A stretch of 64,000 nt of DNA from a virus, in the IMG/VR virus record IMGVR_UViG_3300008339_000021, positions 26,206 through 90,205 of that record; one strand, 5' to 3'. The notes beneath the pieces were generated by a model. The model was not told where the DNA came from. It did no database searches and saw only the letters and a program-made list of their open reading frames with translations. Within the stretch, counting starts at the first letter, position 1. Every line of letters begins with the position of its first letter. The position numbers were made by a program, and so were the translations under genes. Below, piece after piece: positions 11,571 to 46,932 of the stretch.

Positions 11571-14003
11571 TCAGATTATAAATGGATAGGCATTAGTAGC
11601 AAAAACATAACCTCCATTTGCCATTCTTTGTCCTCCATACATACTCTTATTCAATCTAGATTCTTTATAAGCCATGTCAAATGCTTGTTGATAATCTCCA
11701 GTTTTACCTAAGTAATATTGTATTCTATCTTCAAGTGTAGCACTTGTTGCACCAGTAAGTGGTTTCTCAACTCCTGTAGGAGCAATAAATCCATACTCAT
11801 ACTCAGATGCATATTGTGGAGTAAGTATATTCATATTCTGTCTAGCAGCCATTTCTTTATCTGCATCCATCATAGCACCCATTGTATTGTATCTTCTTAG
11901 ATTTTTATTAGCTGTTTCTTGATCTCTGTTAAGCTTTTGTGTATCTAAGGCTCCTTGCATTGCTTGTGCTCTAGCTAACATGTTTGCATTATCAATAGTA
12001 GCTGTTTGAACATTGGTTTCTCTTTGTCTATCAACATTTCTAGATTGTACATCAGCTACAGCATCCATAGAAGCTCTTAGAGATTTACCAAGAAGGTCTT
12101 TCATTTGAGCTTGCTTAGAACTACTTGATCCAGCCATACCTGTCATTACTGCATTTTGTAATGAATTAATTGCTGCTTGAGCTGTGTCAACTTTAGTTTG
12201 ATATTCTTCATAAGCTCCTTTAACTTGTGATCTACCTGGAAGAACAACATTAGATGGTGCAGGTTTAGTTGCTACTAATGCATTACGCATCACATTAGTT
12301 CTAGCTGCTCTACTCCAATGTGGTGTAGCTGCAGTTGCCATACCTTGAGATAGCTGACCTTGGCTACCATCTTGACATATACAATCTGCTTCATTTTCAA
12401 TTGCATACTCTGTTACTTGTCCGGTTACAGGGTCAGTACATCTACATAGAAGACTTTCAGTTTCAGTTATTGTTCCACAAGATGCATCATTAACTAGGCA
12501 TTCTCCAGTCTCTGGATCTTTAGGAGCAATTTTAGTATTACCATTTGAATCTTTATATACAGTTCCATCAGGATTTTTACATAGACAGTCTTCAGTTGGA
12601 GTTGCCTCAGTAAAGATTGCTTCTTCTTCTACAGTTTCTCCTTTAACTTCACATCCTTTTAAAAAACCTAATGCACTTGGTGCAGCTATACCAGCAGCAA
12701 TTATTTCTTCAGCTGTCCAGCCATAATAATTACCACCAACTTTTTTCATCCATGAACATACATCTTCTTTGGTATAACCACCACCACCTCTGACACCTCT
12801 ACCTGAAGCTTCTCTTTGAGATTTAGTTTGAACATCAGCTTTACCAATTACTTCACCTGTTCTTCTGTTATACTTATATTCACCTTGATCATCTCGTCTT
12901 GTTTCCCAAGTACTGCTTGCATATTCTTCTGGAGATACTTTTCTTGTTGTACCTGGTCTTGTATCTCCACCATTATCAAATCTTGGTACACCACCATAAG
13001 CCATTTCATTTGGGTAGTAAGGAAAATCATAACCACCCATTTCCATTCCATATGCAGCATAAGGCATTCCACCATAAGCCATCATACCTGGTTGAGGTGA
13101 CATTGCTTGTTGTGCCATCATATCTGGAGGAGGCATAGAACCTTGCATCTGAGCCATCATATCTGGTGAAGCTACAGGAGCTCCACTAGGCATTTGTTGT
13201 GGATAAGATGGTTGTGGTTGACCTTGAGCCATCATTGCTTGCTGAGCTTGCATAGCTTGTTCAGGAGCCATCTGTTGCATCTCTTGAGCCATCATTGGAT
13301 TTTGCTCTTGAGGCATTCCTGTTTGTTCTCCAGATCCCATAGCTTGAGCTAAAGCATCAGCTTGTTCTTTTAATTCAGGCATTAAATCTTCTTCAGAGAT
13401 TCCATTAGCTTCCATATATGGTTTAGCCATTTCTGGAACACCTTGAGGAAATCCTTTCATAGATTCTTGTACAAGAGCTAGAGCTCCCAGTTTCATGATA
13501 TAATTTTTAATCATGATTGTAGCAGTATCCCTTTCAAGTTTACCACTTTCAGGATCTAAAAGAATTGCTTTGTATTTATTAATGTTATAAGGTTTAGCTA
13601 TCTCTGCAGGAGTATAACCTCCTTTTTTAGGAACCTTGTTAAACATTGCTAATACACTAGGATCATTAATTCTTAATGAAGCTGTATCACTAAAGATAAA
13701 TGTGTCATCTGGAAGATTTAAAGGTACACCTCCTTCATGGTGTCTTTTACCTCTTATCTTAAGATGATCTGGAATTGATTGACCAGAGATTGGACCAAAA
13801 GCAGTTTCACCTCCTTCTGCTTCTAGGTTAGCTTCTTCTCTAGAAACTTCATCTACAGTTTGTTTAACACCCTTATAGTTAGCTTTATCTGATGCTTTAT
13901 AATCTCCTCCACCAAATGCTCCTGGTTGTAATGATAATGAACCATCTACTTGTTTACCGTAAGCAGCTTTACCTAATGGCATTTTTGTTATTTGAACTCT
14001 CAT
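11571..14003 (-). CDS. Putative internal virion/cargo protein (810 aa)
   Basis: N-terminal motif ANLEAEGGE...GKRHHEGGVPL...FIFSD, recalled from phage internal proteins. Q/M/P low-complexity tract, multiple xxGG motifs, short Cys repeats. Confidence 0.6.
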   Translation of the reverse strand: MRVQITKMPLGKAAYGKQVDGSLSLQPGAFGGGDYKASDKANYKGVKQTVDEVSREEANLEAEGGETAFGPISGQSIPDHLKIRGKRHHEGGVPLNLPDDTFIFSDTASLRINDPSVLAMFNKVPKKGGYTPAEIAKPYNINKYKAILLDPESGKLERDTATIMIKNYIMKLGALALVQESMKGFPQGVPEMAKPYMEANGISEEDLMPELKEQADALAQAMGSGEQTGMPQEQNPMMAQEMQQMAPEQAMQAQQAMMAQGQPQPSYPQQMPSGAPVASPDMMAQMQGSMPPPDMMAQQAMSPQPGMMAYGGMPYAAYGMEMGGYDFPYYPNEMAYGGVPRFDNGGDTRPGTTRKVSPEEYASSTWETRRDDQGEYKYNRRTGEVIGKADVQTKSQREASGRGVRGGGGYTKEDVCSWMKKVGGNYYGWTAEEIIAAGIAAPSALGFLKGCEVKGETVEEEAIFTEATPTEDCLCKNPDGTVYKDSNGNTKIAPKDPETGECLVNDASCGTITETESLLCRCTDPVTGQVTEYAIENEADCICQDGSQGQLSQGMATAATPHWSRAARTNVMRNALVATKPAPSNVVLPGRSQVKGAYEEYQTKVDTAQAAINSLQNAVMTGMAGSSSSKQAQMKDLLGKSLRASMDAVADVQSRNVDRQRETNVQTATIDNANMLARAQAMQGALDTQKLNRDQETANKNLRRYNTMGAMMDADKEMAARQNMNILTPQYASEYEYGFIAPTGVEKPLTGATSATLEDRIQYYLGKTGDYQQAFDMAYKESRLNKSMYGGQRMANGGYVFATNAYPFII

Positions 14004-14010
14004 GTCTTTA

Positions 14011-17000
14011 TTATATAAATTTTATTTGACCACCTGCAGCAAGAATCTGACCTATCTCTTCTTGAGTTAAATCATATACACCACCTTGACGGAATTTAAG
14101 TTCCCCACCTTTCTTTACAAAGGCAGCTTCACCTACTACATAGTTAAATCCTGTAGATCCTGCTCCTTGTCCTTTTGACATATTTCTTTGACTTAAACCA
14201 CTATAACCACCTCTATAATCTAGTTGATTAACTGGTTCTCTACTATCAGAAGGACTTCTTGATGCTAAATAATTTGTATTGTAACTATCATTTAGACCAG
14301 CAGAAATTCCTCTGATACCCGCACCTAAGAACTGTCCAGCATTTGCTATCTTATTTGTATCTAGTGTACGTGCCTTATTTATATCATAAGTAACTGAGAA
14401 ATCTTCTGGTGTTGTATTTTGTAATGCAGAAGGTTTATAGTTAGGATCATAACAAGGACTATTTGGATTTTGTACTTCAAATTCTGTACATGGTCCTGTG
14501 ATAGCTTGATTAGGATTTGTTTCTAAATTACTACTATTAGGATTAAAAGGACCTGTTCCACTAAACTGTCCACCAGGATTAAACTCAGGAACATATCCTC
14601 CAAATTCCATATAGTTTGAAGCTCCTCCGTAAATTCTTTTAGGAACCCATTTTTTTAATATATAACTATATTTAGCAGGTGTACCATCAGGGAATGTATT
14701 ATTATTCATTCCATCATTAATAATACCTTGTTCAGTAAAAGCTTTTCTTGCATTAGCCTCTTGTTTATCTGCTTCCCAAGTACCTGTCTTATCATTGTAG
14801 TCTACCGGTGTCCCGTCTGCAAACTGATAACCAGAAGCACCAGTAGTATTGAATATTACACCTTGATTTTTTTGTGCTTGTTCTTTACGTTGAGCTCCTG
14901 ATGTAGTTTCTCTATTCCATTCTTCATTCCAGTCTGGATTACCAGTTTGATTAGTTGTATTAGTAGTCTGAGTTGTGCCTGTATTAGTAGCCCCTGTTGT
15001 GCCTGTATTAGTAGTTTGTGTAGTACCTGTATTATTTACTTGAGTATCAGTGGCTGCAGGTTGAGTTGTAGTTCCAGTTGCTGGTGTTGAAGTAGTTGAT
15101 TGTTCAGGTTCAGTTACTGTTTCTTTACTAGATCTTCTTTGTATTCTTTTTTGTTGTCTACGTTCTCTTGGACTCATTTCTTCTTCAACTGTATTAGTTG
15201 ATGTTGAAGTACCAGTTTGAGTTTCACGAGGATTTGGAGTTTGTAAATAATCAGGTAAACCATTACCATCAGTATCAGCGTTATATCCAGAATAACCAGG
15301 TCCAACTGCTTCAGGATTATATCCTTCTGCAATATTATCTGCAGTTGTATTAGCAGAAGCACCACCAGCTGTTGTACCTGCATTAGGATTATTTGGATCA
15401 ACCCATCTACCTGTAAGTGTCATTGTTTTTTTACCTGACCACCAAGGACCTTTCTCAAACTTATAATCATACATATAACCAGCTTGTGGCTGTGTTGCTG
15501 TACCATCAGCATTTGTACCAGCTACAGGAACCATACCTTGTAATTGACCTTGTGGTTGGAATATAGCACCACTTGCTGTTCTTGCAGGACCTTGTTGTGA
15601 CATCCAAGTAAAATCATAATTACCTCCAGTAGCAGGATTATATTTAAATGGTGAAAACATATTTCTTATCTGTTGACCAATTGTTGGTGCAGTAGGATAA
15701 CTATAACCACCAGTCATTGGATAACCTGCTCCATAACCATAATTATAATTTCGAGTTGTGGTAGTTTCTGTTGATGCAGGTTGTGATGTAGTACCTAATT
15801 TTCTTTGAAGAATTTGTTGATATACTGCATCATTAGGATTAGCTTCATACTTCATAAATGTAGATGCATCTGTCTTAGTCCTATTCATGTAGTCATTATA
15901 CTCAGCAAGAGCTTCTTGTTCAGCTTTTTGTTTAAGCCATGCATCATAATCATTTGTAGTTACTTGACTATTATTAATACCATCATATTTATATAGACCA
16001 CCCATTCTATACATAAAAGGATCATCTACATTTTTAGACTGTATATCATTATTATCATATGCTACTATTGGAGAAATTGGTAACTCATCTCCACCATATA
16101 CAAATTTAGTTAATGTATTAGGATCCATTTGAGATGTATTTACCATTCCACCTTGTTGATAACCTAAATAGTCAGCTACTTTAGGAGCTATTTGAGTTGC
16201 AAGTCCATATGCAGGAAATGTCATACCCAATGTAAAATCGGAAACATTATTGGCTACATCTTGTGCAGCTCGTTTTCCAGCATACTGTGCACCAAGTATT
16301 TTTGCTCTATCATATCCATATTTCTTCTTTATTTCTTCCCACCATTGGGTGTACGTCGTACTAAGAATAGGGTTTTTCATTAAATCTGGGACACTACCCA
16401 ATTTATTCAACATGTCAAACTGTTGTTCCTCATCCGCTGTTAAAAACTCTAGATTTTTGTCATATATTAATTGTTCAAGTTCAGGATTAACCTCAAAAGA
16501 CTTATTTGCATCTGAAGAATTTTTTGAGTTTTGTTCTTGTAGGTAATTGTCACCAAAATAATTATCATAAGAATAAAAATCATATTCAAGTTCATCTTTA
16601 AGAGCTTTAACATATTTGTTTTCTGGTGTACCATATGTTTCTTCATATAGCTTATTCAGATTAGATATTATTGCTTCTTTTCCAGCTGTATCTGAACTAT
16701 TATATTTTTGTTTTATTCTATTCATTTCAGCTTGATAGTCAGCTTCAGAATAAGTTGGCGATGCAACTCCAGTAGCAGGAGCACTGGCAAAACTTTTAGG
16801 TGTAGTTGTAGTTGTAGTTTTAGCTTTAGGTGTGCTTGCTGCAAACATTTTATTTATCTCAGCTTGTACTTGTGCATAGTTTTCACCTAATGCTGCTTTT
16901 CTTGCAGCACCACTACCATACTCTCCCCTAAGTGTTTTCTGAACTTCTTCACTTAAGTTAAATGGTATAGTTTCAGTATTAGCTCCTACAGTTTCAGTAG

Positions 17001-18636
17001 CAGCAGGTATTATTTCTGTTCCTGTAATAGGTGCTGTTTCAGTAATAGTTTCTGGCATAGGACCAGTACCTACAGATTCAGTTCCAACTACTGGTGCTGT
17101 CTCAGTAGGAATAAAATCAATTAGCTGTGTTCCAGAAGGATTTGTTTGAGTTGGCATGAAATTTTTATTTCCTGCTCCGAACATCCATGGAGCTTGAGCA
17201 GCAGCAGCTCTTCTTCTTGCTGCTTCTTCTGCTGAAATTGCTTCAACTTCATTTCCTTGTTCATCATATACCATTTCAGTTCCTTCAGGAGCAGGATTTA
17301 ATTCCATATAACCTGCATAGGGTTTAATACCACTATTTTTAAGAATTGTTGCTTCATCATTTTTAGCAGGATCTGCTGCAGCATTTAGTACTTGAGATTT
17401 TGTTCTTATAACTTCACCAGGAAATGTTCTAGTTGTATTCCAAGAAGAACCATAACCCATACCCATTGGCATATATCCATAACCAGGATTCATACCAGCT
17501 AACATAGCTGCAGGTATACCTTTAGCAGACCATTCTCTTGTGCCTTTCCACCATGGTCCTTTTTTATACTCTAAATCAATAAGTGGTCCTGTTTGACCTG
17601 ACATAGCTCCAGCAGTCATTTGAGGATTAACTATTTGAGGAGATACCACTTGAAGATAGTTTGGTAATCCCGGTACTCCAGCATATCCAGCTGCCATATC
17701 CCCAAACATGTTTTGCCAATCTCTTGCTACTCTACGAGTTTGTCTATCAGCTTGTCTTTGTTCACGTCCTCTTCTTGCTTCTGGCAAGTTTTCATAACCT
17801 GCACCATGTACTTGATTCATAGGTTGTTTAAAAATATTTGATACTGATCCTGAATAAGCTTGAAGATGATGCATTGGATTTTCTATATCTTGCTGTTCCA
17901 TCTGCATTCCCTCTTGTGCCATAGGCATCATTTGGTTATTCATTGGAGGTAAGGCACTTGTTTCTTGTTGTAACTGTTTAGTTTTATCATAAATTTCTTT
18001 TGCATAATACTCATTACCAAGATCTTTTATACCTCTTCTAAAATTATTAATGTGTGCTTGTCTTCCATTTGGAGAATCTAATATTGTAGAATTACTAGAT
18101 TCATCTTGCTGCATTCCTTCTGCAGCTTTTTTTAATCCTCTTACTATATTTTTGACAAACTTTTTCTTACCAATAGTTCCTCCTTTTCTTTCTACTGATA
18201 ATGCTTGTTCATCTTCTGCAGCTAGATCATCTTCACTTTCTTCACCAAAGTCATCCCAGCCTGTATCATCATCAGATATCCATGGTAAATCAGTATCATA
18301 GAGTGGTTTTTTAATAGGAACAATATCTTCAACTTCTGCATCTTGAGAAAGCATTTCATTCTTTGTATCATTAACATCTTGTCTATACAAAAATTCAACT
18401 ACTTTTTCTACTCTATCTAGAGCATCAAAATAACCAAGACCATATTTATCTTTTAAGGTATCAGCAATCATCTCTACATCTGTAGTCATTGTTAATTGAT
18501 CTAGTATATCTTGTTCTAAAGCTAAATCATTAACTTGCATACCGGCCTGAGCCTTTTGTAAAAACTGGGCTGTCTTATTAATATATTGTCCATTTCCTCC
18601 TGGATCTTTATATATTCTTACTTTTCTTTTGTTCAT
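14011..18636 (-). CDS. Low-complexity putative cargo protein (1541 aa) with a CW_7 (Cpl-7-type) cell-wall-binding-like motif
   Basis: Long T/G/Q/P-rich ORF. VQKTLRGEYGSGAARKAALGENYAQVQAEIN resembles the CW_7 consensus. Many xxGG motifs. Confidence 0.6.
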   Translation of the reverse strand: MNKRKVRIYKDPGGNGQYINKTAQFLQKAQAGMQVNDLALEQDILDQLTMTTDVEMIADTLKDKYGLGYFDALDRVEKVVEFLYRQDVNDTKNEMLSQDAEVEDIVPIKKPLYDTDLPWISDDDTGWDDFGEESEDDLAAEDEQALSVERKGGTIGKKKFVKNIVRGLKKAAEGMQQDESSNSTILDSPNGRQAHINNFRRGIKDLGNEYYAKEIYDKTKQLQQETSALPPMNNQMMPMAQEGMQMEQQDIENPMHHLQAYSGSVSNIFKQPMNQVHGAGYENLPEARRGREQRQADRQTRRVARDWQNMFGDMAAGYAGVPGLPNYLQVVSPQIVNPQMTAGAMSGQTGPLIDLEYKKGPWWKGTREWSAKGIPAAMLAGMNPGYGYMPMGMGYGSSWNTTRTFPGEVIRTKSQVLNAAADPAKNDEATILKNSGIKPYAGYMELNPAPEGTEMVYDEQGNEVEAISAEEAARRRAAAAQAPWMFGAGNKNFMPTQTNPSGTQLIDFIPTETAPVVGTESVGTGPMPETITETAPITGTEIIPAATETVGANTETIPFNLSEEVQKTLRGEYGSGAARKAALGENYAQVQAEINKMFAASTPKAKTTTTTTPKSFASAPATGVASPTYSEADYQAEMNRIKQKYNSSDTAGKEAIISNLNKLYEETYGTPENKYVKALKDELEYDFYSYDNYFGDNYLQEQNSKNSSDANKSFEVNPELEQLIYDKNLEFLTADEEQQFDMLNKLGSVPDLMKNPILSTTYTQWWEEIKKKYGYDRAKILGAQYAGKRAAQDVANNVSDFTLGMTFPAYGLATQIAPKVADYLGYQQGGMVNTSQMDPNTLTKFVYGGDELPISPIVAYDNNDIQSKNVDDPFMYRMGGLYKYDGINNSQVTTNDYDAWLKQKAEQEALAEYNDYMNRTKTDASTFMKYEANPNDAVYQQILQRKLGTTSQPASTETTTTRNYNYGYGAGYPMTGGYSYPTAPTIGQQIRNMFSPFKYNPATGGNYDFTWMSQQGPARTASGAIFQPQGQLQGMVPVAGTNADGTATQPQAGYMYDYKFEKGPWWSGKKTMTLTGRWVDPNNPNAGTTAGGASANTTADNIAEGYNPEAVGPGYSGYNADTDGNGLPDYLQTPNPRETQTGTSTSTNTVEEEMSPRERRQQKRIQRRSSKETVTEPEQSTTSTPATGTTTQPAATDTQVNNTGTTQTTNTGTTGATNTGTTQTTNTTNQTGNPDWNEEWNRETTSGAQRKEQAQKNQGVIFNTTGASGYQFADGTPVDYNDKTGTWEADKQEANARKAFTEQGIINDGMNNNTFPDGTPAKYSYILKKWVPKRIYGGASNYMEFGGYVPEFNPGGQFSGTGPFNPNSSNLETNPNQAITGPCTEFEVQNPNSPCYDPNYKPSALQNTTPEDFSVTYDINKARTLDTNKIANAGQFLGAGIRGISAGLNDSYNTNYLASRSPSDSREPVNQLDYRGGYSGLSQRNMSKGQGAGSTGFNYVVGEAAFVKKGGELKFRQGGVYDLTQEEIGQILAAGGQIKFI
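14956..15034. repeat. 24-bp coding tandem repeat (about 3.3 copies) encoding NTGTTQTT-like units
   Basis: tgtattagtagtctgagttgtgcc / tgtattagtagcccctgttgtgcc / tgtattagtagtttgtgtagtacc / tgtatta. Confidence 0.85.
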
Positions 18637-18655
18637 ATAACCGGTTCTATATATT

Positions 18656-18666
18656 TAATATACTAA
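18656..18666 (-). promoter_or_regulatory. Conserved intergenic motif (TTAGTATATTA), candidate late promoter
   Basis: One of about 7 copies of TT(T/A)GTATATTA, each shortly upstream of a minus-strand start codon. Confidence 0.55.
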
Positions 18667-18696
18667 TTTTTAGTTTAATGAATAAACCTATTAAGT

Positions 18697-21600
18697 TTAT
18701 TCTTCAATTACTGTATAACCTTTTCTGATGTAATCTTCTATTTCTTTATCAGTTAATTCCATTTCTAAAAAGTTGGAATCCCCACCAAATTGTTTTTTAT
18801 TTGTAGTACCTTGATTCATTTGATAATTTGGATCAAATACAATTTCATCATTTATTACAGTTAAACTTACAGGTGGCATCACCCGCCCATTTTTTATTAT
18901 AATCCTTTCTCCAGAAGGCCATACTTGAGCTTTAGGATTATTATATATATACCTTCTAGCAGTTGGATAAAGATCTTTATCATCTGTAAACAGCTCATAA
19001 TCAATACCTCTATCAATTAATTGTTGTTCTGTTTCTGTAGGTATTTGACCTGCATAGTATATTCCTACAAGAGCTCCAGTTGCACCAACTGCAAGTCCAA
19101 CATTTTGAAGTTTGCTTTTAAATTTGTTTTTTTTAACTTCTAAAATTTGTCTTTCATTATATATTTCAGATGCTCTAGTTTGTAATTCTTGTATTCTTTT
19201 TTCTACTGCATTATATTCAGTTTGTGCTCCCTTTGTAAATTTATTTATAAGAGCCTCTTGTTGAGCAATTAAAGCATTATATTCATTTCTTATTAAACTT
19301 AATCTAGTATTTGCGTTTATTATTCCATTATCTATTATTGAATTAATTTTATTAAAATCATCAATAGTTGATATTTGTGAAGAAGTACTAGCTTTATTTG
19401 CTATTAAACTTTCTAATTTTTCTTTTCTTTGGAAACCTGATTTTGGAGCGGTATGATATTTCTTATATGAATATAGCATAGAGTCTACTAACTCATCAAA
19501 GTTTCCAAACAAAGATGCATATTGAGATCTTGATGCACCATATGTTGGTGTTGCTATATCTGCATCTTTTGCAATAGCTCTTATCCCCATTGTTTCAGCC
19601 ATTTCATCTAATGCAAGTTTACCTTGAGTATAGTCAGAATCAGCAATTATTAAATTTAATATATCTCGTGATTCTTTAATATTGTCAAGTTGATATTTAT
19701 ACTGTGGCAAATATTTAAGAAAAATTTCTTGTACCTGTTTAGCTTCTTCTGGAGTATATACATATGTACCACTAGTTGCCCTATTAATAGATTTAACATA
19801 TGCTTCAGGATTAGATATATCAGTTTTAATACCAATTTGTCTATGACCTATAATAGCATTTTCTGTGTCATATACATGTATAGGATTTCCTTTTCTTACT
19901 GTATTTAATCCCATTCCATTTAGTGAGCCTCCTCCAGCGGCAGGATACCATTCAGTTAATGCATTTTCTATAGTTTTAACTTTGTCAGTTGTTAGTGGTA
20001 AATTGTGCGGACTAATTTCTCTTGTGAAAGTAGTCATGTTGATATAATAGTCATTCAATGCTAATTGCATTCTAGCAGGATCATTTGCTACTCTAACTAC
20101 ATCATCACCTTTAAAACCCATTGCTATTAAAGCATCCATGTTCTTTGCAGGATCAGAAAGGTCCTCTACTTTAAATTGATGCCCTAATGTTGCTTTGTGA
20201 CCTGCTATAGATTTAATATATGCTTCTTGACCTTTAGCTACTACTGCAGGATCACCATATTCTATTAATACATCTGGTCTTACTATATGTTTTTCTTTTG
20301 ATGATTTATAACTACCCCATTTTGTTAATGGTGTTGCCTCATATGAATCTATTACTGTTTTTACTTTAGAATCAATACCATTCATAAATTCTTCAGTAGA
20401 CATATTAATTTCAATAGGCTTTCCTGTTTTAATTGATTCAATTGAAGCTTTTTGAAATTGTTCAGGATAAAATTGTCTAAACAATTCAACCTCTAAAGAA
20501 GTTTCTTCTTGTGTATTTACATCTTTTCTCCATACTGGTTTTACTGTTCCATTAGGATTTTCATGTACTATATTAAAATCTAATGTTCCTTCTTGTCCAT
20601 ATTGTGGATACACAGAATGTTGTTTGGCTGGACCATAATCTTGAACAAAAGAAAATTTATCTTTTACATTTTTATTATAAGCACTTTCACTTATAAGAAC
20701 ATCTATGTCACCAGTAATATGTGGCATACCAGCTTCAGTTACAAGAACACTTGAACCAAATACTTTTGCTCCTGGTATATCAGTTTCAACTTTTTGTTTT
20801 GAATTACTTAATGAATTAACATATTCTTGAGATATAACAGGTTCATTAGTTGAAGCATCTTTTACAACTAATTCACCATCTTGTATACTATATTTTACAT
20901 CTACTTTTGGTAACTCAACTTGAGCTTTTATTTTTTCCCCAGTGCTAAAATCTGTAACCACTTGCTCACCAGTAGTTACAGCACCTTTATATATTGAAGG
21001 TTGAGTTTGTTCTAAACCTTCTCCTGTTTTTACAAAGTCTTGTTTTATCTTACTATATTTATTTATATCTTGTTGCCTTTCATACATTTTTCTTGACTTA
21101 GGTATGAGTCGGTTTTTATCTTCAAAATAGTTTTCAAACTTTCTTTTCTTAGTATTTAATAATTTACCAAGTTCCTCCTCTCTTGCAAGTAATCCTTTTT
21201 TACTAGGATCTACAGCCCAGTCATCCGGCCAGACACTTCCAAGTTCCTTTACTAATTCATCATGTTCTTTAGCTAAAGCTTTAATCTGATTATTAAAATA
21301 ATTTACTTTATTTACTGTGTTTAATGCTTTTAATCCTTTCTTACCATAATCAGACATTAATGTTCTTAATTGATTAGGTATTTTTATTTTTGGATTTCTA
21401 GATAGAAAAGCTGCTAGGATCATAATTGGTGCTCCAGCTTGTGTAACATTTCCATCTGTCTGTTCTTCATTAGCTAGACTCAATGTTGTTGCAACTCCTC
21501 CTGCTATAATTGGCAGAGCATTAATTACATTTTTTAGTATGCTAAAGTTCTTTGGATTATTTTCCATTATATCATATAGTCTTAAAGGATATTTTTCTCC

Positions 21601-24600
21601 TTTTAGATTTTTATAAGTTTTATAATGTTCTCTTAGCATATCTATGGTGATAGGGTCATACTCATTTTTTAGTATTCCTTTATCCAACATGTCTTGTCTT
21701 ATCTCTGCAACGAATGGAACTTTTTCTGTACCCTTAGAACCTGTATTAAAATACTCTAATGTCTTTTCTAGATAGTTTGGATTTGCAGTACCAAATAATG
21801 AATGTGCTTTTGATTCTTCTGAAACAACTTCCATTCCTGGAATCTCTAATTGTTTTCCTGCTGATTTTCCACTAACTAATTGTAGTTCTTTTAATTGCTC
21901 ATCTAAGTATGTTATATTAGCTTCTTTATTTGCAAATGATCCTAGATAATGACCAAGTTCATGTGCAGTAACTTTTTTAAGATCTCCTGCTGCAAACTTA
22001 TCTCCACTTACAAATAATTGATTGTCTTTCATTCCATAGAAACCAGCCTTATCTCCAAATATTTTTTCTGTTTCTGATATAGCAGTATTAACAGAATTTA
22101 ATTCTGCTTCTAAAGGGTCAACTAAATTTTTATAATCTTGTGTTGACATCTTACCTTCATCATAAAAAATAGTAAAATAATCTATTTGATCTTCTAAACT
22201 TTTTCTTTTATTTAATTGGTTGCCATAAACTTTATTTAAATTATTCATTGTAGACATACCCTCTATCAAGGTTTCTGGTGTTTGTCCAGCTAATGATGGA
22301 GTATTGTCAATCATTAACTGTAATCTTCTTTTGCCTTCTTCAGTTTGCCATAACTCAATTTTGTTATTTCTCATGTCATCAATGACATTGGCAGCAATTT
22401 CATTATCTGATTTATTTACTATTTGTTTTGCTTGAGTTGAAATTGATTCTTGAGATACTCCTGTGGATTGTGAAGCTTTCCATTCTTTAAACATTTCTGC
22501 ATCTTTTGCAGTACCTAATGGAAGAACTTGTTCTGGCTCAAATGCTACATATGTATTACCACCTTCTCCCTGAAACATGTCTCTACCTATTACACCATCT
22601 GCTCCTTCTAATCTAGCTTCTGTAGGTGTAATAAGATTTGATCCTAAACCACTTCCTCTAAACTCTTTAGCTTTATCAGTAAACTCATATGATTGATCAA
22701 GGACTGTAGGATTTTCTAAATTTAACAAGACAGGTTTTCTTGTCCCTTTCATTTCCTCTAATTCATATAACCATCCTTTATCTTGTGTTGCATAGAATGG
22801 TCTTCCACTTTCAGCAAGAACTTCATCTCCTCTATTAACATGATAAAGAATATCCTGTGCTGAACTATTAGGAAATGTTTGTCTTAAATACTCAGCATAT
22901 TCATCTGCCGTACCAATTTTACTTAACTCAGGATAACTATTATATATGGATTCAATTTCTGGAGTAACACCTGAAACTCCTGCAATGCCTAGTTGATCAT
23001 CTGCTGTAGTTAATGCTTGTTCTTCTGCAAGAGCTTGATCAATATTCAATGGTTGTCTAGTTGTGTTAAGTCCTTCAACTGTTCCAGAAACTTCTTTTAT
23101 AGTTGCCTTCTCTGTATTTAATAAAACATATTCAGGTTGACCAAAAAGATTTGTACCTTCTATATAATCATAACCTTGTTTTTGGAGATCTTTAAGTACT
23201 GATTGTTTTATTCTTTCCATAGAACCCTCATACTTATATCCTTTAGCATTTGAGGGAAGTCTAATTTCATGTAGACCACCATTTGGATTTTCTCTAGCAT
23301 ATTTTAAAGCCCAAGATCCTTCTTCAAGATCTGGTGACATATAAAAGCCTGCATAACTTCTACCTTTTTTATTTTGTCTTTGAGCTAATCTTAATGGGTC
23401 TATATCAGCTACTGTTGCATTTTTATCAAGACCTCCGTGATAGAAAACTATATCATCAGTATTTTGTGTTATTGTATTCTGATTAAGAGGATCATATGAT
23501 TTAGCAACTTCTTTATATTCATCTGGTAATATAAATTCTTTTTCAGGCTGTCCTGCAAATGATAATGCTGCTGGATCATTTTTAACATTATATTCTTCTA
23601 ATTTTGAAAATGGTACTTTAGTTTCTAAATATACCATCTCATTTGCTTTATCAATATACTGACCAGTTACTGGATCAAACACATATGTATTAACAGCATG
23701 TGGTGCACCCCTTTCTCCTACTTTTTGTGTACTCCACCATTTACCAGCTGTATTCTGAGGAAAAAATGAACCTATGCGTTCTACACCATTTTCATCTACA
23801 TATCTTATTGCAGCTGGATCTTGCATAGCCTCTGCTATTTCTGATTCAGACATTTCAGCTACTGGTCCATAATCCCAATTATTATACTCATTAGCAGTTT
23901 TACTTTCTGAAGGTAAATATCCTGGAATTTCACTTCTATATAAAGAAACTTCAGTATCTAATGTTTTTGGAATATTTTCATATACTTGAGCAGCTGTTTT
24001 GCCTTCATTCAAAAGAGTGTTAATGTTTGCACCTATATATCTGCTATTATTTGTTAAGCTTCCAATATTACTTCTCATTATTTTAAATTCACCAAGATTT
24101 GCATACTTAGTAAATCTATTTAATGGGTTTGTTAAATTAGTAAATGCTTCAGTTGCATTTCCAATATTTGGATTACCCACAACTAAACCACTCTGTAAGG
24201 GTGAATTATATAAAAATGAATAATTACCTGATGTAGGTAATACACCGAGACTACCCGGCTTTCTAAGTTCATTAATTGCTTTAAATGTATTTGCCGCAGG
24301 TTTAATAAGTGGTAAAACACCTAGACCTCCCCATAGTAAATTTTCAAATCCTTTAGCATGATCTCCTTCTGAAAACCCTTCATAGGCTTGTTGAATATGT
24401 CCTTGTGGTTTTAATGCTTCATATGCAAAATATGCATTAAGAGCATTACCTCCTGTTAACCATGGTAGAGATTTAATTGGTGCATAAGCTAAAGCTCTTG
24501 ATGCTCCTATAAGACCTAAACCTCCCATAGCAATTGTTCCTGGTAGATTATAAAGAAATGAACTTTGAAAATCCTGCATGTTGTCAGCAAGCATTGCTTT

Positions 24601-26325
24601 CTCATATTTATCAGCTTCTTCTTGAGTCATGTAAACTGTTTGCCCAGCCATCTCATCTGGGGTAACAAATTTTGTCAATTGTTCTCCTGTTATAGGATCT
24701 TTACCAGCAGGAACCTCAAATTGATATTGATAGTATTGACCACCCCAACCATCTTCATCACCTCCAACATACATTTTATTAGGTCTCCATTCATCTGTTT
24801 CACTAATTTGAACAGCTACTTTACCTTTTTTCCAATCTTCTTCATCTTGTTCTATTGTTGGAAAATATTTTTTCTTATATGCTTGTGGTTCTAAGTTTTG
24901 GTAATCTTTTAAATTATTTATTAATGCTTTATCTAAGTCTGTTGGTTCTACTACTAGATTTTTATATGTATCATCAGCAGCAAGTTTTACAAGTTCATTT
25001 GATTTTGGTTTCCACCCCCATTTACCTGAACGTAGTGCTTGAAGTATTTGTGCACCCCATTCTTGTCTACCAGTAGCATTAGGAGAAACAATATCTATAT
25101 TAGCACCATGACTATCAATAAATTCTCTATCTCTTGCTAGAGTAATAATATCATTATCTGTCCACCTATCTATTAGATCTGTTGTTTGATCTTTCTCATA
25201 TGGTTTTTCATAATCATCACTATATGCTATATAAGCTTTTGCATAGTTTTCTATTTCTTTAAAATCTTTTCCATATGATTTATAAAGATCTTCTTTTGTT
25301 CCTAGTTTTTTTACATTAGCTAAATAACTTACTGCATTATCTAAACTATATCCTTTCTTCTCCATTAAATCAAGGACAGCTTTCTTAGTTTGATATTCAT
25401 GGTATTCATCTGCTTGACCCATGAAATCTCCAAAGTAATTTTCTATAGTTTCTTTAGTACCTACACCAAGTTTATTTATTATATCATCTGTTCTAAGACC
25501 ACTATCCCATATTCTTGTATAAATTTCATTTGATGGAAATAATTCTACATTTCCAGTAGTTTCATTTTTATTTATAAAGTAACCTTGAGCCTTAAGTTGA
25601 TTTTCATATTCAGGATCTGTACTTAATCTTGATTCATATTCAGTTAATGGAATTGTTTCAAGTGGATCTAGTTTGTCAAACTTATTTTTCTTTTTAAAGT
25701 CTGCTTCTCTTTGAGCTAATTTTTCTTGCCATAATCTTTCTTCTTCTTCTTCTCTCTTTTTTTGTTCTTCAGCCAGTCTTAATTTTTCTTCTTCTTCTAT
25801 TTGAAGTCCTACAGCTTCTCTTTCTGCTTCAAGTTTTGCTATTGCTTCTGGAGTAAGACACTGTCCCATATAAGGACTTGTACCTGGTTGACATACTAAT
25901 GGATTACCATTTATATCTACTGGTGCATATGGATTACTTTCTACAGAGGTTACTGTGTTACCTGAGATACCTTTATAGAAAGCCGGGGTTCCTATGGGTG
26001 CTGTTACCATATTTCCTGTATACAAATCTGTTTTGTATCCATAAGGAAATACTGTTGGTAAAGTATTTATTATTTCTTCTTCAGTTTTTTGATCAGTTGG
26101 TAATGTATTTACTAGTTGTTCATTAGTTATTTGAACAGGTTGAATTAATGAAGGATCTACTGGTGTTGATCCTAACAAAGGATCAGTAGGAAAAAATCCT
26201 TCTACTGGACTATTCCAATTTGATGTTACAACTGGTTGAGTTTCTTTATTTTTTTTTCTTCTTAAAAATTTAGGAGGCCAAGCTGTTTGTTCTTGTGGTA
26301 TTCCTGTTATTTTATACTTTGCCAT
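18697..26325 (-). CDS. Giant polyvalent cargo protein (2542 aa): three ADP-ribosyltransferase-like domains, HExxH zincin, Pol-beta-type nucleotidyltransferase
   Basis: Motifs LYRSE..GKWWST..EKEFILP; FYHGG..GFYMS..GYDYI..EYVLLN; LYHV..FYAT..LLNLENP..GADGVI..YVAFEPEQV; TAHELGH; VFGSS..GDIDV..LDF. Confidence 0.7.
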   Translation of the reverse strand: MAKYKITGIPQEQTAWPPKFLRRKKNKETQPVVTSNWNSPVEGFFPTDPLLGSTPVDPSLIQPVQITNEQLVNTLPTDQKTEEEIINTLPTVFPYGYKTDLYTGNMVTAPIGTPAFYKGISGNTVTSVESNPYAPVDINGNPLVCQPGTSPYMGQCLTPEAIAKLEAEREAVGLQIEEEEKLRLAEEQKKREEEEERLWQEKLAQREADFKKKNKFDKLDPLETIPLTEYESRLSTDPEYENQLKAQGYFINKNETTGNVELFPSNEIYTRIWDSGLRTDDIINKLGVGTKETIENYFGDFMGQADEYHEYQTKKAVLDLMEKKGYSLDNAVSYLANVKKLGTKEDLYKSYGKDFKEIENYAKAYIAYSDDYEKPYEKDQTTDLIDRWTDNDIITLARDREFIDSHGANIDIVSPNATGRQEWGAQILQALRSGKWGWKPKSNELVKLAADDTYKNLVVEPTDLDKALINNLKDYQNLEPQAYKKKYFPTIEQDEEDWKKGKVAVQISETDEWRPNKMYVGGDEDGWGGQYYQYQFEVPAGKDPITGEQLTKFVTPDEMAGQTVYMTQEEADKYEKAMLADNMQDFQSSFLYNLPGTIAMGGLGLIGASRALAYAPIKSLPWLTGGNALNAYFAYEALKPQGHIQQAYEGFSEGDHAKGFENLLWGGLGVLPLIKPAANTFKAINELRKPGSLGVLPTSGNYSFLYNSPLQSGLVVGNPNIGNATEAFTNLTNPLNRFTKYANLGEFKIMRSNIGSLTNNSRYIGANINTLLNEGKTAAQVYENIPKTLDTEVSLYRSEIPGYLPSESKTANEYNNWDYGPVAEMSESEIAEAMQDPAAIRYVDENGVERIGSFFPQNTAGKWWSTQKVGERGAPHAVNTYVFDPVTGQYIDKANEMVYLETKVPFSKLEEYNVKNDPAALSFAGQPEKEFILPDEYKEVAKSYDPLNQNTITQNTDDIVFYHGGLDKNATVADIDPLRLAQRQNKKGRSYAGFYMSPDLEEGSWALKYARENPNGGLHEIRLPSNAKGYKYEGSMERIKQSVLKDLQKQGYDYIEGTNLFGQPEYVLLNTEKATIKEVSGTVEGLNTTRQPLNIDQALAEEQALTTADDQLGIAGVSGVTPEIESIYNSYPELSKIGTADEYAEYLRQTFPNSSAQDILYHVNRGDEVLAESGRPFYATQDKGWLYELEEMKGTRKPVLLNLENPTVLDQSYEFTDKAKEFRGSGLGSNLITPTEARLEGADGVIGRDMFQGEGGNTYVAFEPEQVLPLGTAKDAEMFKEWKASQSTGVSQESISTQAKQIVNKSDNEIAANVIDDMRNNKIELWQTEEGKRRLQLMIDNTPSLAGQTPETLIEGMSTMNNLNKVYGNQLNKRKSLEDQIDYFTIFYDEGKMSTQDYKNLVDPLEAELNSVNTAISETEKIFGDKAGFYGMKDNQLFVSGDKFAAGDLKKVTAHELGHYLGSFANKEANITYLDEQLKELQLVSGKSAGKQLEIPGMEVVSEESKAHSLFGTANPNYLEKTLEYFNTGSKGTEKVPFVAEIRQDMLDKGILKNEYDPITIDMLREHYKTYKNLKGEKYPLRLYDIMENNPKNFSILKNVINALPIIAGGVATTLSLANEEQTDGNVTQAGAPIMILAAFLSRNPKIKIPNQLRTLMSDYGKKGLKALNTVNKVNYFNNQIKALAKEHDELVKELGSVWPDDWAVDPSKKGLLAREEELGKLLNTKKRKFENYFEDKNRLIPKSRKMYERQQDINKYSKIKQDFVKTGEGLEQTQPSIYKGAVTTGEQVVTDFSTGEKIKAQVELPKVDVKYSIQDGELVVKDASTNEPVISQEYVNSLSNSKQKVETDIPGAKVFGSSVLVTEAGMPHITGDIDVLISESAYNKNVKDKFSFVQDYGPAKQHSVYPQYGQEGTLDFNIVHENPNGTVKPVWRKDVNTQEETSLEVELFRQFYPEQFQKASIESIKTGKPIEINMSTEEFMNGIDSKVKTVIDSYEATPLTKWGSYKSSKEKHIVRPDVLIEYGDPAVVAKGQEAYIKSIAGHKATLGHQFKVEDLSDPAKNMDALIAMGFKGDDVVRVANDPARMQLALNDYYINMTTFTREISPHNLPLTTDKVKTIENALTEWYPAAGGGSLNGMGLNTVRKGNPIHVYDTENAIIGHRQIGIKTDISNPEAYVKSINRATSGTYVYTPEEAKQVQEIFLKYLPQYKYQLDNIKESRDILNLIIADSDYTQGKLALDEMAETMGIRAIAKDADIATPTYGASRSQYASLFGNFDELVDSMLYSYKKYHTAPKSGFQRKEKLESLIANKASTSSQISTIDDFNKINSIIDNGIINANTRLSLIRNEYNALIAQQEALINKFTKGAQTEYNAVEKRIQELQTRASEIYNERQILEVKKNKFKSKLQNVGLAVGATGALVGIYYAGQIPTETEQQLIDRGIDYELFTDDKDLYPTARRYIYNNPKAQVWPSGERIIIKNGRVMPPVSLTVINDEIVFDPNYQMNQGTTNKKQFGGDSNFLEMELTDKEIEDYIRKGYTVIEE

Positions 26326-27953
26326 TATTTTACGATTTCAAATGTATAACCTAGTTTTTCTAATTCTAATTTAGTAGCTTCATCTACTTCATCTCCTATA
26401 TCATATTCTCCTCCTGATTGCCATTTAGTTAGTCTTGGAATAGAAATATCTTCTACTACATAACCACCCTTTACATATTGATCAATTTCATTTTGAGTAA
26501 GTTCAGTTTCAATAGGTGTTGGATTGGTTCTAGCTTTTTCTTCTAGCTCTTTAATTTTTGCTCCATATTCCATCTCTGGAGAAAATCTAGATACATAAGC
26601 AGTTCTTCCATTACCTGGTTTCATTCCAGACCACATACCTACATTAAAATCAAAGTCTGATGCCCTACCATTGCTATCTACATAGATAGGTTTTCCATCT
26701 TCTCTATAATGGGAAAATGTCATAGCATGGGAAGTACCCGGTCCCTTAATATTTATTATATCTCCAGTCTGTAGTAATCCTTTTTCTTGTGCATCAAAAT
26801 CTGGGTCAGTTGTTTTAGTTACTCTTTCAAAAGGTACAGTACCTTTATTTACAGCATTAATAAATTTATCATTTGACTCAAATGCAGTTTTAGAAACATC
26901 ACTAAACTCAGGCTCACACATCCAACCTGATCCTGCAGCCCACATACAGTTTGCAGGATTAGGCATTCCCAATCTACTTTCTAAAGTTGGTACACCTCTG
27001 TTTTTCCAAGCAGTTGCTGCACTCATGCCTTTACCTTCTTCTGGATAAACATCATATATAACATCCCATGCTGTATCTACAACTTCTTGTGGAAGGTATC
27101 TTCCTCTATCCAACATTTCTTGGATCTGATCTGTTTCTAAACAACGTCCTTCATCAACACATAATGTTTCAGTACCTGTTACTACATCTGATATCTCTGC
27201 TTCTTTTTTAACTGGAATCTCTGGAAATTCTTTTTGCTCAACAATACCTCTCAAATGATATGGTATAGGAACCATATAATTTGACATTGCATTATTAGTT
27301 TTATCTGCAGGTGCAGCATCTGGATTTTGTTGTCTCCATATATAATAGTCCTGAAGCATATTCTGCATGTAATTATAATCTTCAGGCAACCATTGTGTAG
27401 GTTCTCCTATTTGAGTTTCTGCAGCTTTAATTTGCTGATCCCATTCTTCTGGGGATTCTGGAAAAACACCGGGAATATATGTAGGTACTATTTGAACAGG
27501 TGATACATCTCCACCACCTTGAAAGTACATTGCTTGTGGATCATAGATCTTTTTCTTATAGTTCTTCTTTTTGAATAAAGGATTCTTTTTAAATAAAGAG
27601 TTCTTTTTACTTTTTGCAAATATTCTATTAGTGGCTAATAAACTTTTAGAATACTTTTTACTACCACCTTTCTTTGCTTCTTCTAATGGAACTTCAGTAA
27701 CTACATTTGTATCAAACTGATGCATACCGGAATATGGAGAAAGAACTTTTCCATTTGCCATAATAGGCACTCCTGTATTAGACATATCAATTGTACCATC
27801 CTCAGTATAGATATCCATTGACTGTTTGTTTCTAAATGGAGAATCATCTCTGTATCCCATTTTAGAATTATAATCAATGTCTCTTTTCTTAGCCGGCTTT
27901 TTTGCTTTGTCTAAGTTTTTTAAAGTTTCTAAAAGTAACTTCTTGTTATACAT
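26325..27953 (-). CDS. Virion protein with NlpC/P60/CHAP-like papain-fold peptidase domain (542 aa)
   Basis: Catalytic-type arrangement NCMWAAG ... LQTGDIINIKG..SHAMTF (Cys 26946-26948, His 26727-26729). Confidence 0.6.
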   Translation of the reverse strand: MYNKKLLLETLKNLDKAKKPAKKRDIDYNSKMGYRDDSPFRNKQSMDIYTEDGTIDMSNTGVPIMANGKVLSPYSGMHQFDTNVVTEVPLEEAKKGGSKKYSKSLLATNRIFAKSKKNSLFKKNPLFKKKNYKKKIYDPQAMYFQGGGDVSPVQIVPTYIPGVFPESPEEWDQQIKAAETQIGEPTQWLPEDYNYMQNMLQDYYIWRQQNPDAAPADKTNNAMSNYMVPIPYHLRGIVEQKEFPEIPVKKEAEISDVVTGTETLCVDEGRCLETDQIQEMLDRGRYLPQEVVDTAWDVIYDVYPEEGKGMSAATAWKNRGVPTLESRLGMPNPANCMWAAGSGWMCEPEFSDVSKTAFESNDKFINAVNKGTVPFERVTKTTDPDFDAQEKGLLQTGDIINIKGPGTSHAMTFSHYREDGKPIYVDSNGRASDFDFNVGMWSGMKPGNGRTAYVSRFSPEMEYGAKIKELEEKARTNPTPIETELTQNEIDQYVKGGYVVEDISIPRLTKWQSGGEYDIGDEVDEATKLELEKLGYTFEIVK

Positions 27954-45187: not shown

Positions 45188-45634
45188 TTATTTTCTTTTC
45201 TTATTTTTTACAGCACCTCCTCTTCTTTGTTTATAAGGACTTGAAGTTGGAACACTCATATTCAATGTATTAGCTCTTTGTCTTGGTGCTGGTGTTGATT
45301 GCATTGACTGTGTACCAATCACACCTTCTGGCTTACTCATAGACATTATTTTTTGCATAGCAGTAGAAGGATTAACACTACTATAAACAGATGGAGTTCC
45401 TGCTGGTGGTGTAAGATTAGGTTTTGCTGGTGGAGATGCTGGATACTGATTTAACATGTTTTCAAATGCAGCATCATCCGCAGCCATTCTTCCCATACCA
45501 GATCCTCCTCCACCTTGGAGTTTCTTTAAATACTTATTATAAGCTTTCATTTGTCCACCAGCTTTCATATGAGCCATAGCTACATTATCATTAAATGTTT
45601 TAAGTGGATTATTAGGTTTAAGTGGTTTTTTCAT
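45188..45634 (-). CDS. Small basic low-complexity protein with xxGG motifs
   Basis: Tightly packed ORF; MKAGG, LQGGG, QRRGG; Lys-rich tail. Confidence 0.7.
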   Translation of the reverse strand: MKKPLKPNNPLKTFNDNVAMAHMKAGGQMKAYNKYLKKLQGGGGSGMGRMAADDAAFENMLNQYPASPPAKPNLTPPAGTPSVYSSVNPSTAMQKIMSMSKPEGVIGTQSMQSTPAPRQRANTLNMSVPTSSPYKQRRGGAVKNKKRK

Positions 45635-45636
45635 AG

Positions 45637-45783
45637 TTATCTATTTTTAGCCATTTTTTTTAATGTTCTAGCTAGAGCTTTTCTTTTAGGTGTACAAGTA
45701 GGTTTTGACATAGGAGTACAATAACCCTTATGTTTAGGATTGATTGCTTTTTGTATCCATTTTTTATCCTTCTTAGTAGCCAT
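45637..45783 (-). CDS. Small basic protein, 48 aa (not in ORF track)
   Basis: Hand translation MATKKDKKWIQKAINPKHKGYCTPMSKPTCTPKRKALARTLKKMAKNR; fills the gap with 2-nt spacers on both sides. Confidence 0.8.
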   Translation of the reverse strand: MATKKDKKWIQKAINPKHKGYCTPMSKPTCTPKRKALARTLKKMAKNR

Positions 45784-45785
45784 GA

Positions 45786-46022
45786 CTATTTTTTCTTTTT
45801 ACTAGCTCTTTTCTTAGCACCTGCAATTCTATCAGCTGCTGTTGCTTTAGGATTATTATCTATACCAGCTTTTACTGAAAGCATACCAAATTTAGTAGCA
45901 CCACCTTTCTTCATTTGCATAGGTCTAGTAGTAGCATTATAGCCAGGCATACCAACAATTTTTTGTGAACCACCTTTTTGCATTTTCTTTGTGGCACCGC
46001 CACATTGCATACATTTTTTCAT
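45786..46022 (-). CDS. Small basic protein with CxxCGG and MxKGG motifs
   Basis: Tightly packed ORF with 2-nt spacers. Confidence 0.75.
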   Translation of the reverse strand: MKKCMQCGGATKKMQKGGSQKIVGMPGYNATTRPMQMKKGGATKFGMLSVKAGIDNNPKATAADRIAGAKKRASKKKK

Positions 46023-46024
46023 GA

Positions 46025-46381: not shown

Positions 46382-46400
46382 ATTGATATAAATATATAAA

Positions 46401-46682: not shown

Positions 46683-46684
46683 TA

Positions 46685-46930: not shown

Positions 46931-46932
46931 AA

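Follow-up and report, generated by a model that had tools for sequence, protein, structure and literature searches.

Matched end motifs on the cargo proteins of an uncultured crAss-like phage: a putative docking clasp between consecutive gene products

Podoviruses load several huge proteins into the capsid and tail and release them in order ahead of the DNA, and the maps of crAss001 show only a minor part of this cargo. How such an order could be set is a question for four consecutive genes, here termed A to D, which lie in a stretch of 64,000 nucleotides (the window). The window is the right-hand 64 kb of a linear, 90,205-base virus contig from IMG/VR (IMGVR_UViG_3300008339_000021), which is estimated to be 76% complete and whose source is an uncultured crAss-like phage; the terminase, portal and major capsid protein on the contig were recognised via PHROGs. 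The products of A, B and C carry a common acidic motif at their C-termini, termed the tail motif, and those of B, C and D start with a short basic strand, termed the head strand. From these matched ends it had been predicted that each protein docks onto the next one encoded. Docking of a tail motif with the following head strand is the best reading of the sequence comparisons described here, and its chances are considered to be about even.

All genes of interest are on the minus strand, and the four open reading frames were confirmed there with the lengths first given for them (542, 2542, 1541 and 810 amino acids). They are listed with the gene that precedes them.

27953..33502, minus strand: muzzle protein gene, 1849 amino acids, Pfam PF25731 (crAss_MUZ), directly upstream of A
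26325..27953, minus strand: A, first cargo protein, 542 amino acids; N-terminal module of residues ~1-160 conserved, no head strand
18697..26325, minus strand: B, giant cargo protein, 2542 amino acids; its start overlaps the stop of A by one base
14011..18636, minus strand: C, cargo protein, 1541 amino acids; CW_7 repeat at residues 568-597 (expectation value, E, 1.9e-7)
11571..14003, minus strand: D, 810 amino acids, from a large unannotated family

The product of the muzzle gene passes the PF25731 cut-off (E 1.6e-33, 116.4 bits vs 27), and its PHROG is that of a virion structural protein. The gene order is muzzle, A, B, C and D, followed by genes for proteins of 1125, 2285, 3605 and 2540 amino acids; for comparison, the order in crAss001 is gp44 (muzzle), gp45, gp46 and gp47. 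A to D were placed in the cargo slot because they have the same position after the muzzle gene as the virion cargo genes of crAss001. D is located where cargo protein 1 is expected, after the muzzle and ahead of giant RNA-polymerase-like proteins.

The tail motif and the head strand

The termini of A to D were read letter for letter from the translations, and those quoted in the original prediction proved correct. The shared C-terminal motif of A, B and C is acidic, has about 27 residues and is built as GG-strand-helix-Gly-strand. A strict pattern for it matches exactly these three genes: in the six-frame translation of the whole contig it has 3 matches and none in any other frame or gene. The match lies 42 residues before the stop in A and 3 before the stop in B and C. 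An xxGG sequence ahead of each terminal copy, also part of the prediction, is present as WQSGG in A, KQFGG in B and FRQGG in C, and the basic N-terminal strand of B, C and D was borne out as well, with the consensus (K/R)-h-(K/R/Q)-I-x-x-x-P. At the two ends of the series, A is without a head strand, and D is without a tail motif, its C-terminus being different. The individual copies are the following.

26445..26513, minus strand: internal tail-motif copy of A, residues 481-503, found by hidden Markov model (HMM; iE 9.3e-10) and strict pattern; followed by ISIPRL and WQSGG
26328..26396, minus strand: terminal, diverged tail-motif copy of A, residues 520-542, GDEVDEATKLELEKLGYTFEIVK, read from the translation
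26296..26325, minus strand: head strand of B, MAKYKITGIP, conserved in relatives as MAKYKITSIPSL, MKKYRITSIPSL and similar
18700..18786, minus strand: tail cassette of B, FGG followed by strand-helix-Gly-strand and ending with FLEMELTDKEIEDYIRKGYTVIEE at the stop (translation and strict pattern)
18601..18636, minus strand: head strand of C, MNKRKVRIYKDP; a related basic strand is seen by eye in 49 of 49 unique N-termini of C homologs listed
14014..14085, minus strand: tail cassette of C, GGVYDLTQEEIGQILAAGGQIKFI, ending at the stop (translation and strict pattern)
13977..14003, minus strand: head strand of D, MRVQITKMP (translation), conserved

The terminal copy of A belongs to a diverged subtype which was missed by the HMM in the window and for which relatives were found (for example in L012 and L002); this subtype is terminal in 6 of 6 unique instances found. 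In C, the GG before the tail motif is invariant in 52 of 52 aligned tails. When the last 45 residues of B were modelled with AlphaFold2 from 113 motif rows, the block-mean predicted local distance difference test (pLDDT) was 91-97 over residues 21-45, with a helix at residues 29-37. For D, residues 1-34 and 36-42 have a pLDDT below 50 in the monomer model, yet they are conserved, and residues 45-210 are modelled with confidence.

Coupling of the two halves in relatives

The two halves were followed in 80 viral loci retrieved with a D-homolog alignment and later in 80 metagenome loci. Scored by HMM and pattern, the unique gene junctions fall into four classes.

Tail motif and head strand: 84 of 304 unique junctions
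Tail motif only: 12 of 304 unique junctions
Head strand only: 21 of 304 unique junctions
Neither: 187 of 304 unique junctions

By eye, a strand missed by the pattern is visible at 11 of the 12 junctions with a tail motif only, and the 21 junctions with a head strand only include 1 chance match in unrelated genes and 9 diverged tail motifs. Of 99 unique C/D pairs, 92 have the tail motif as well as the head strand, which together with the 84 junctions above gives the matched C- and N-terminal elements on consecutive subunits that are looked for in a docking pair. Five of the 99 pairs form one clade, where the tail motif is without its last strand (ending in KINISDFQDLMRLAGLK at the stop) and the head strand is reduced to MNKRLTRLP; in a further pair (L050) the last strand of the motif is short, and another (L095) contains a frameshift, with the motif intact in a different frame. 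In L095 (1200-1620), the C gene ends with YGGSK and a stop, and the tail motif, GGVYNMSKEDLMAFMAAGGEIEFL with its stop, stands immediately ahead of D; the frameshift may be genuine or a product of assembly. The first C/D set comprised 52 unique pairs of 81 loci, with duplicates, open-ended loci and loci without a matched ANLEAE landmark of D dropped; in the metagenome set, the landmark was missing in 8 of 80 loci and the upstream open reading frame in 3. The expectation that the two motifs would be adjacent across phage genomes was borne out at most C/D junctions, and it failed where the tail motif is internal, as it often is, or where a head is unpaired, as some are. Since gene order is itself conserved, docking and shared ancestry cannot be told apart by adjacency alone.

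Natural C-D fusions give a second type of evidence. Of the 75 long D-family proteins retrieved, 36 have an internal D domain, at residues 657-1108, and 27 of these 36 start with the head strand of C itself. The tail-motif HMM matched 0 of the 75 long proteins, and 35 of 35 fused rows on the tree are without the head strand, so both elements are dispensable upon covalent fusion, as for a docking pair. The two halves are missing together at the join because the segment between the conserved GG of C and KARTGYQ of D is gone: a fused example reads YGQSGG-SI-KARTGYQVQG, whereas a split one has YGG, EGDEVYMTDEEI and FLANGG.VEYL up to the stop and then MLRKVRIKSVPKARTGYQVQG. A 191-row tree of D domains requires 4 changes for the fused state, and supported branches enforce 3 of these. 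In the fused C-D loci L056 and L057, the cassettes are kept at the A/B and B/C junctions. The D domain does not need the head strand, as the natural fusions go without it; head strands are kept across D proteins down to about 35% identity. The head-strand pattern missed 23 split rows of the tree, and by eye the strand is present in 12 of them (5 of the MLRKVRIKAVP type, 4 of the MY.VRIKTLP type, 1 MYRVRIK and 2 MRKVRI); the other missed rows are 7 with a later Met called as start (MPLDKAAYG), 1 fragment (P0045) and, for the rest, the clade with the altered strand. For fusions of C with the protein before it, a pattern for the N-terminal region of C gave 60 N-terminal and 0 internal occurrences.

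The third type of evidence is a switch of charge. At position +3 of the last tail strand and at the centre of the head strand, the 92 C/D pairs have E with R in 52 cases, E with K in 30, K with Q in 6, T with R in 3 and Q with R in 1. Position +3 is thus E in 82 of the 92 parsed pairs, the head centre then being R or K, and a Q in the head was found solely with a K in the tail and a tail K solely with a head Q (6 unique pairs). The subclade of the window has 15 loci, all of them concordant, with 1-2 switches. The A/B junction of L037 has the same K/Q swap, and 9 other A/B junctions have E with K or R.

The tail motif itself is widespread. Its HMM was built from 82 unique C-terminal seeds, taken from 81 related loci and the genome, and gave 198 matches at iE<0.01 in the 81 viral loci and the contig (duplicate loci included), all on the coding strand; 124 of them lie no more than 6 residues from a stop. 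From 113 motif instances (110 of 133 unique ones and the 3 from the window) a profile was made and compared with 1.84 billion cluster representatives, and 1501 proteins were obtained at E<=0.001. The best 150 of these 1501 have 2-4 copies each, and 121 of the 150 have a terminal copy. The internal copies sit at the module boundaries of the variable proteins encoded between the muzzle gene and C. Among the best 150 representatives, GG is found within 16 residues upstream of 184 of 238 internal copies and within 22 residues downstream of 144 of 238; I-[ST]-x-P-x-L comes next after 94 of 238 and resembles the B-type head strands (MAKYKITSIPSL). With such a look-alike strand in cis, the internal copies appear as if the genes had been cut inside a module whose halves can re-associate.

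A single junction of this type was identified in a cultured cyanophage, Leptolyngbya phage Lbo-JY46, where one protein ends with QQGGYNLGEEIDLSPEEVAKLIELGYDFEVV at the stop and the next starts with MKIRIIGLPKAQ; by its sequence, the cassette occurs outside this clade. The tail motif was not found after the muzzle genes of Flavobacterium phage Fpv1 and Cellulophaga phage phi4:1, and a tblastn search with D gave no match in cultured phages. Among solved structures, a sequence profile search of the PDB with the motif returned nothing better than cytochrome c6 (E 0.043). The motifs, their conservation and distribution, and their joint presence or absence are established.

A docking clasp and its alternatives

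The following series of events can be proposed. A to D would be virion-carried, injected proteins in the slot of crAss001 cargo protein 1 (gp45). In this environmental crAss-like clade, the cargo region would have gained extra modules and been divided among two to four genes, and each cut would bear a two-part cassette, consisting of an acidic tail after Gly-Gly on the upstream protein and a basic strand at the start of the downstream one. The basic head strand would most likely add onto the last strand of the acidic tail motif, with an E-to-K/R ion pair included, and this would link the separately made proteins again, non-covalently and head to tail, in the order of their genes. Provided that the D domain is bound to the portal like that of gp45, the chain would extend from portal to muzzle, and A, B, C and D would leave the virion in this order. 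We infer binding and its geometry, the location in the virion and the order of ejection, and likewise the fixed stoichiometry and the swapping of modules which the original prediction had attached to docking.

A more specific form of this proposal is possible rather than probable. Here, one cargo protein of the gp45 type, reaching from portal to muzzle, would have been cut inside a small repeated fold whose halves, the acidic strand-helix-strand and the basic strand, re-associate in trans, and gene order would be channel order and injection order. As a portable gene-splitting joint, the cassette would allow the insertion, exchange, fusion or splitting of effector modules with loading preserved, and the chain would pass on into the RNA-polymerase-like giants through a terminal Cys-Cys link.

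Several observations weigh against docking. C-termini are not the only place of the tail motif: among the 198 HMM matches in the loci, 74 are internal, as are 238 of 359 copies, about two thirds, in the best 150 of the 1501 representatives. Because of the internal copies, of which A is an example with two tail motifs, a genome has more tail motifs than head strands. At 7 types of junction before C (X/C; L011, L020, L035, L041, L069, L047, L048) there is a head strand and no upstream tail motif, some of them ending in another tail, KLKKFI, and 4 more X/C junctions end in a helix-only variant without the last strand (ITDSEYRRILKYLKSRGYK at the stop); these unpaired heads, about 11 unique types, are all at the junction before C. 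Three X/C junctions (L050, L060, L065) have K in the tail, yet the head keeps R. Raw mutual information over the 92 pairs does not single out the proposed contact, which is not in the top 15; the top pairs are variable, high-entropy, clade-driven columns. In the 45-residue monomer model of the end of B, the helix is flanked by extended segments and not by paired strands. The fusion pattern is also expected if each free end merely needs its own signal. The independent events are few, with 3-4 fusion transitions and 2-3 charge switches, and a sign test on independent fused and split pairs cannot reach 0.05 because there are only 3-4 such pairs. The link between the D domain and gp45, described below, is weak, with Z scores of 5.3-5.4 and Foldseek, Pfam and hhalign not significant. 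A complex prediction for D 1-215 with the last 60 residues of C gave scores of 0.13 and 0.06 (mark 0.32) and counts neither way. Of the docking claim, the comparative part, consisting of C/D coupling, loss on fusion and the charge switch, has stood, and the notion of a purely terminal tail motif with a partner for every head has not.

The most probable alternative is that tail and head never touch and are independent end signals, each read by the portal, tail barrel, muzzle, scaffold or capsid interior, for packaging or for threading through the channel at ejection; it is considered unlikely, though it deserves serious attention. It explains why both halves are lost upon fusion, where no free ends are left, and why head strands last without an upstream tail motif. 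In crAss001, the tail barrel, muzzle and portal each have short gp45 segments bound to them (PMC10172136), and gp45 itself starts basic, with MAKKKIKRRGKMPP, though it follows the muzzle gene and no tail motif is ahead of it. However, the tail motif is not tied to a free end, since it is also found inside proteins, and D, the 1125-residue protein and the downstream giants are without it though presumably packaged. The joint K/Q versus E/R switch at two junction types, and likewise the joint degeneration in one clade, would be unexpected for halves that never meet.

It is less probable still that the motif is a passive linker in polyvalent cargo proteins, with gene boundaries falling inside it by chance and the halves being leftovers without a binding role. 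This would suit the internal position of most copies, their place at module boundaries and their flanking xxGG, and polyvalent virion proteins are an established class (PMC5512222). On such a basis, C-D fusions should keep the motif as the proteins before C do, but all of the long D-family proteins lack it. Both the conservation of head strands among distant D proteins and the exclusively terminal position of the subtype at the A/B junction also argue against leftovers.

Cleaved propeptides have models in the T4 capsid targeting sequence and in adenovirus-type GG cleavage, and for the cassette GG would be a protease site and the terminal peptides targeting sequences removed in maturation; this appears rather improbable. 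The invariant GG of the C tails, a GG after many head strands, as in MKKRVRIYKAQEGG, the small basic proteins of the window that end in RRGG with a basic tail, and the unassigned HExxH motif in B are in its favour, and autoprocessing of polyvalent proteins has been proposed (PMC5512222). Against these stand the lack of a protease family in 27 proteins scanned versus Pfam and/or PHROGs, on a contig estimated to be 76% complete, several conserved GGs inside the confidently folded domain of D, and a crAss001 text which, in its available part, is without words starting with 'cleav', 'proteoly' or 'protease' (PMC10172136). Moreover, GG is not enriched compared to shuffles in A (5 vs 3.0), B (12 vs 13.1) or C (15 vs 13.6). 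Enrichment was found only in D (15 vs 7.5) and the 1125-residue protein, and GG as a general code was rejected on these counts.

The least probable reading, that tail motifs pair with one another into one sheet and so bundle the cargo, would fit the several copies per protein (2-4 in the best 150 representatives) and the tandem copies at some C-termini (A of the window, P0305, P0245, P0297), but it treats the head strand as unrelated and leaves that strand, the joint loss and the covariation with the tail motif unexplained.

If docking is correct, a portable pair of end motifs would represent a sequence-level rule for the order and loading of cargo. It would explain the free exchange of effector modules among these phages and would offer a means of bringing foreign proteins into virions. 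With 1501 cluster representatives, the unannotated motif family is a large one. The idea is directly testable, since the cultured phage Lbo-JY46 carries a single junction.

The D domain, neighbouring modules and known systems

One folded domain was modelled in D.

13374..13871, minus strand: D domain, residues 45-210 (AlphaFold2 on D 1-215, pLDDT ~90)

Among solved structures it matches 7qog_M best, the domain of crAss001 gp45 that is bound to the portal, with Z 5.4, a root-mean-square deviation of 5.6, 98 of 126 residues aligned and 19% identity. In a comparison with 48,161 representative chains, 7qog_M came first at Z 5.3, ahead of the next at 4.8; a VIA-align Z below 8 may reflect only a common arrangement. 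A language-model feature search gave 0.93 for a cluster in which 88% carry PF25725, the family of gp45. With Foldseek, the D domain matched the gp45 domain at E 1.8 and rank 13, which is not significant. PF25725 has no match on D (E<=0.01), on D 1-215 (E<=10) or on the whole contig (E<=10), and as a control it matches crAss001 gp45 at E 2.3e-66. Comparison of D-family alignments to gp45 by hhalign gave a probability of 0.7% (E 0.08-0.09), and BLASTP of a C-D fusion versus gp45 gave E 1.6; BLASTP of the 1125-residue protein versus crAss001 gp46 gave E 0.26 and no relation. A relationship of the D domain to the portal-bound domain of gp45 is a good lead from these models and is regarded as probable. 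If it holds, the natural C-D fusions resemble the layout of gp45, and the split forms would be a gp45-like thread cut just N-terminal to the portal-bound domain.

D belongs to a family of 1840 proteins at E<=0.001 among 8000 candidates scored, and D itself has no Pfam hit (E<=0.01) and no PHROG hit. In Pfam and PHROGs, A to D are nearly blank, the CW_7 repeat in C and one unknown PHROG in B being the only entries. Module boundaries in the four proteins were inferred from the motif copies and from variable inserts in relatives. In A, residues ~80-160 match up to 128 of 159 proteins found by phmmer, and residues 1-160 are a module common to most first cargo proteins. Residues 160-480 match few; they look like an inserted module because there are only about 3 relatives, and their Cys and His motifs suggest a cell-wall hydrolase. 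Some first cargo proteins (L011, L029, L039, L042, L046; P0199, P0200 and others) start with MKK..K.SKI.GKGLF, which we take to resemble the start of a SET-domain methyltransferase.

Further modules were observed in the same region. Long D relatives (P0125, P0182, P0198, P0195, P0197) have precomputed Pfam matches including OmpA (PF00691), Peptidase_M23 (PF01551) and PF26571, which fit a periplasmic, cell-wall-directed role for an ejected protein. Between D and the next cargo gene, seven loci (L018, L031, L033, L058, L068, L069, L080) have an extra gene for 211-213 amino acids, which opens like the next cargo gene (MATYLQS.. vs MATYLQGV..) and continues with ..GIYKITS..; it looks like an inserted gene of the homing-endonuclease type with a copied neighbour start. 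A mini-module of about 40 residues with four Cys (..KKVTCKKCGW.WDAADGG.D.TTCHKCGGQGL..), bounded by GG, is found right after an internal tail motif in L013, L019, L020, L030, L047, L048 and L050, within proteins encoded between the muzzle gene and C. In some phages, a second, basic C-terminal tail (..KLKKFI[DSRN] or ..HKLSKFIN at the stop; L011, L047, L048, L076, L077; P0214, P0238) replaces the acidic tail motif of the protein before C or comes after it, and it may be an alternative clasp. At 45188-47259 of the window, small basic proteins end in RRGG or KRGG with a short basic tail (QRRGGAVKNKKRK and ERRGGSVKLKRKK, each at its stop, and AKRGGSVIKGS..) and could be DNA-associated internal proteins.

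The nearest system by gene position is crAss001 gp45, cargo protein 1 (PDB 7QOG chain M; PF25725), which like A to D is encoded directly after the muzzle gene and is carried in the virion (Bayfield et al. 2023, PMC10172136). Like A to D, gp45 is rich in xxGG and has a basic start. It differs in being one gene, whereas here the slot is filled by four genes with 5435 residues in total and with clasp cassettes at the cuts; PF25725 does not match D, the hhalign comparison is not significant, and terminal motifs are not described in the available part of the crAss001 paper (PMC10172136). Polyvalent proteins are giant, multi-module proteins which are delivered with the DNA, with processing or release of modules having been proposed (Iyer et al. 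2017, PMC5512222). The HExxH motif in B and the CW_7 repeat in C may be features of this kind; the available text of that paper contains none of the words 'linker', 'glycine' and 'crAss' and describes no joint or clasp motif (PMC5512222).

The original prediction knew of no description of such docking in phages. Literature searches gave none of an acidic tail with a basic head either, but an end-to-end contact has been described. In the pre-ejectosome of cyanopodophage A4, the C-terminal helix of gp27 is placed in a cleft of gp26 and locked by a Cys1715-Cys5 disulfide (Hou et al. 2025, PMC12002296). The docking idea is not without phage precedent, since in this solved case the start of one ejection protein holds the C-terminal end of its neighbour (PMC12002296). 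Unlike the cassette, A4 uses helix insertion and a covalent disulfide instead of an acidic strand-helix-strand with a basic strand, and it has one junction and not a repeated cassette.

Downstream of D, a closer analogue of the A4 disulfide than the cassette was identified.

1277-1302 of the window: junction of the genes for the 2285- and 3605-residue proteins; single Cys four residues from the end (..NINNCKPK, stop), the next protein starting with MAC

Complete gp47-like homologs of the 2285-residue protein have exactly one Cys, located in the last 6 residues, in 13 of 13 unique cases. The protein after the gp47-like one starts with MACQ.. or with MKITCAL../MKIQCAL in 5 of 6 visible cases (MKITCAL/MKIQCAL in 4 of 5 others). 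This Cys pair resembles the gp27-gp26 lock and may be a second end-to-end signature in the same gene array.

Docking domains of polyketide synthases and nonribosomal peptide synthetases are short, matched C- and N-terminal elements on consecutive subunits which set their order; they are dispensable when the subunits are fused, and some of them work by strand addition. They act on cytoplasmic enzymes and not on virion cargo, and they have no sequence or Pfam relation to the cassette. Pfam searches with the termini at E<=10 gave only DUF7443 (E 0.26) and no described docking-domain family. In contrast to these docking domains, the C-side element is here also found inside proteins. The cassette may work like a docking pair while not being a member of the described docking-domain families.

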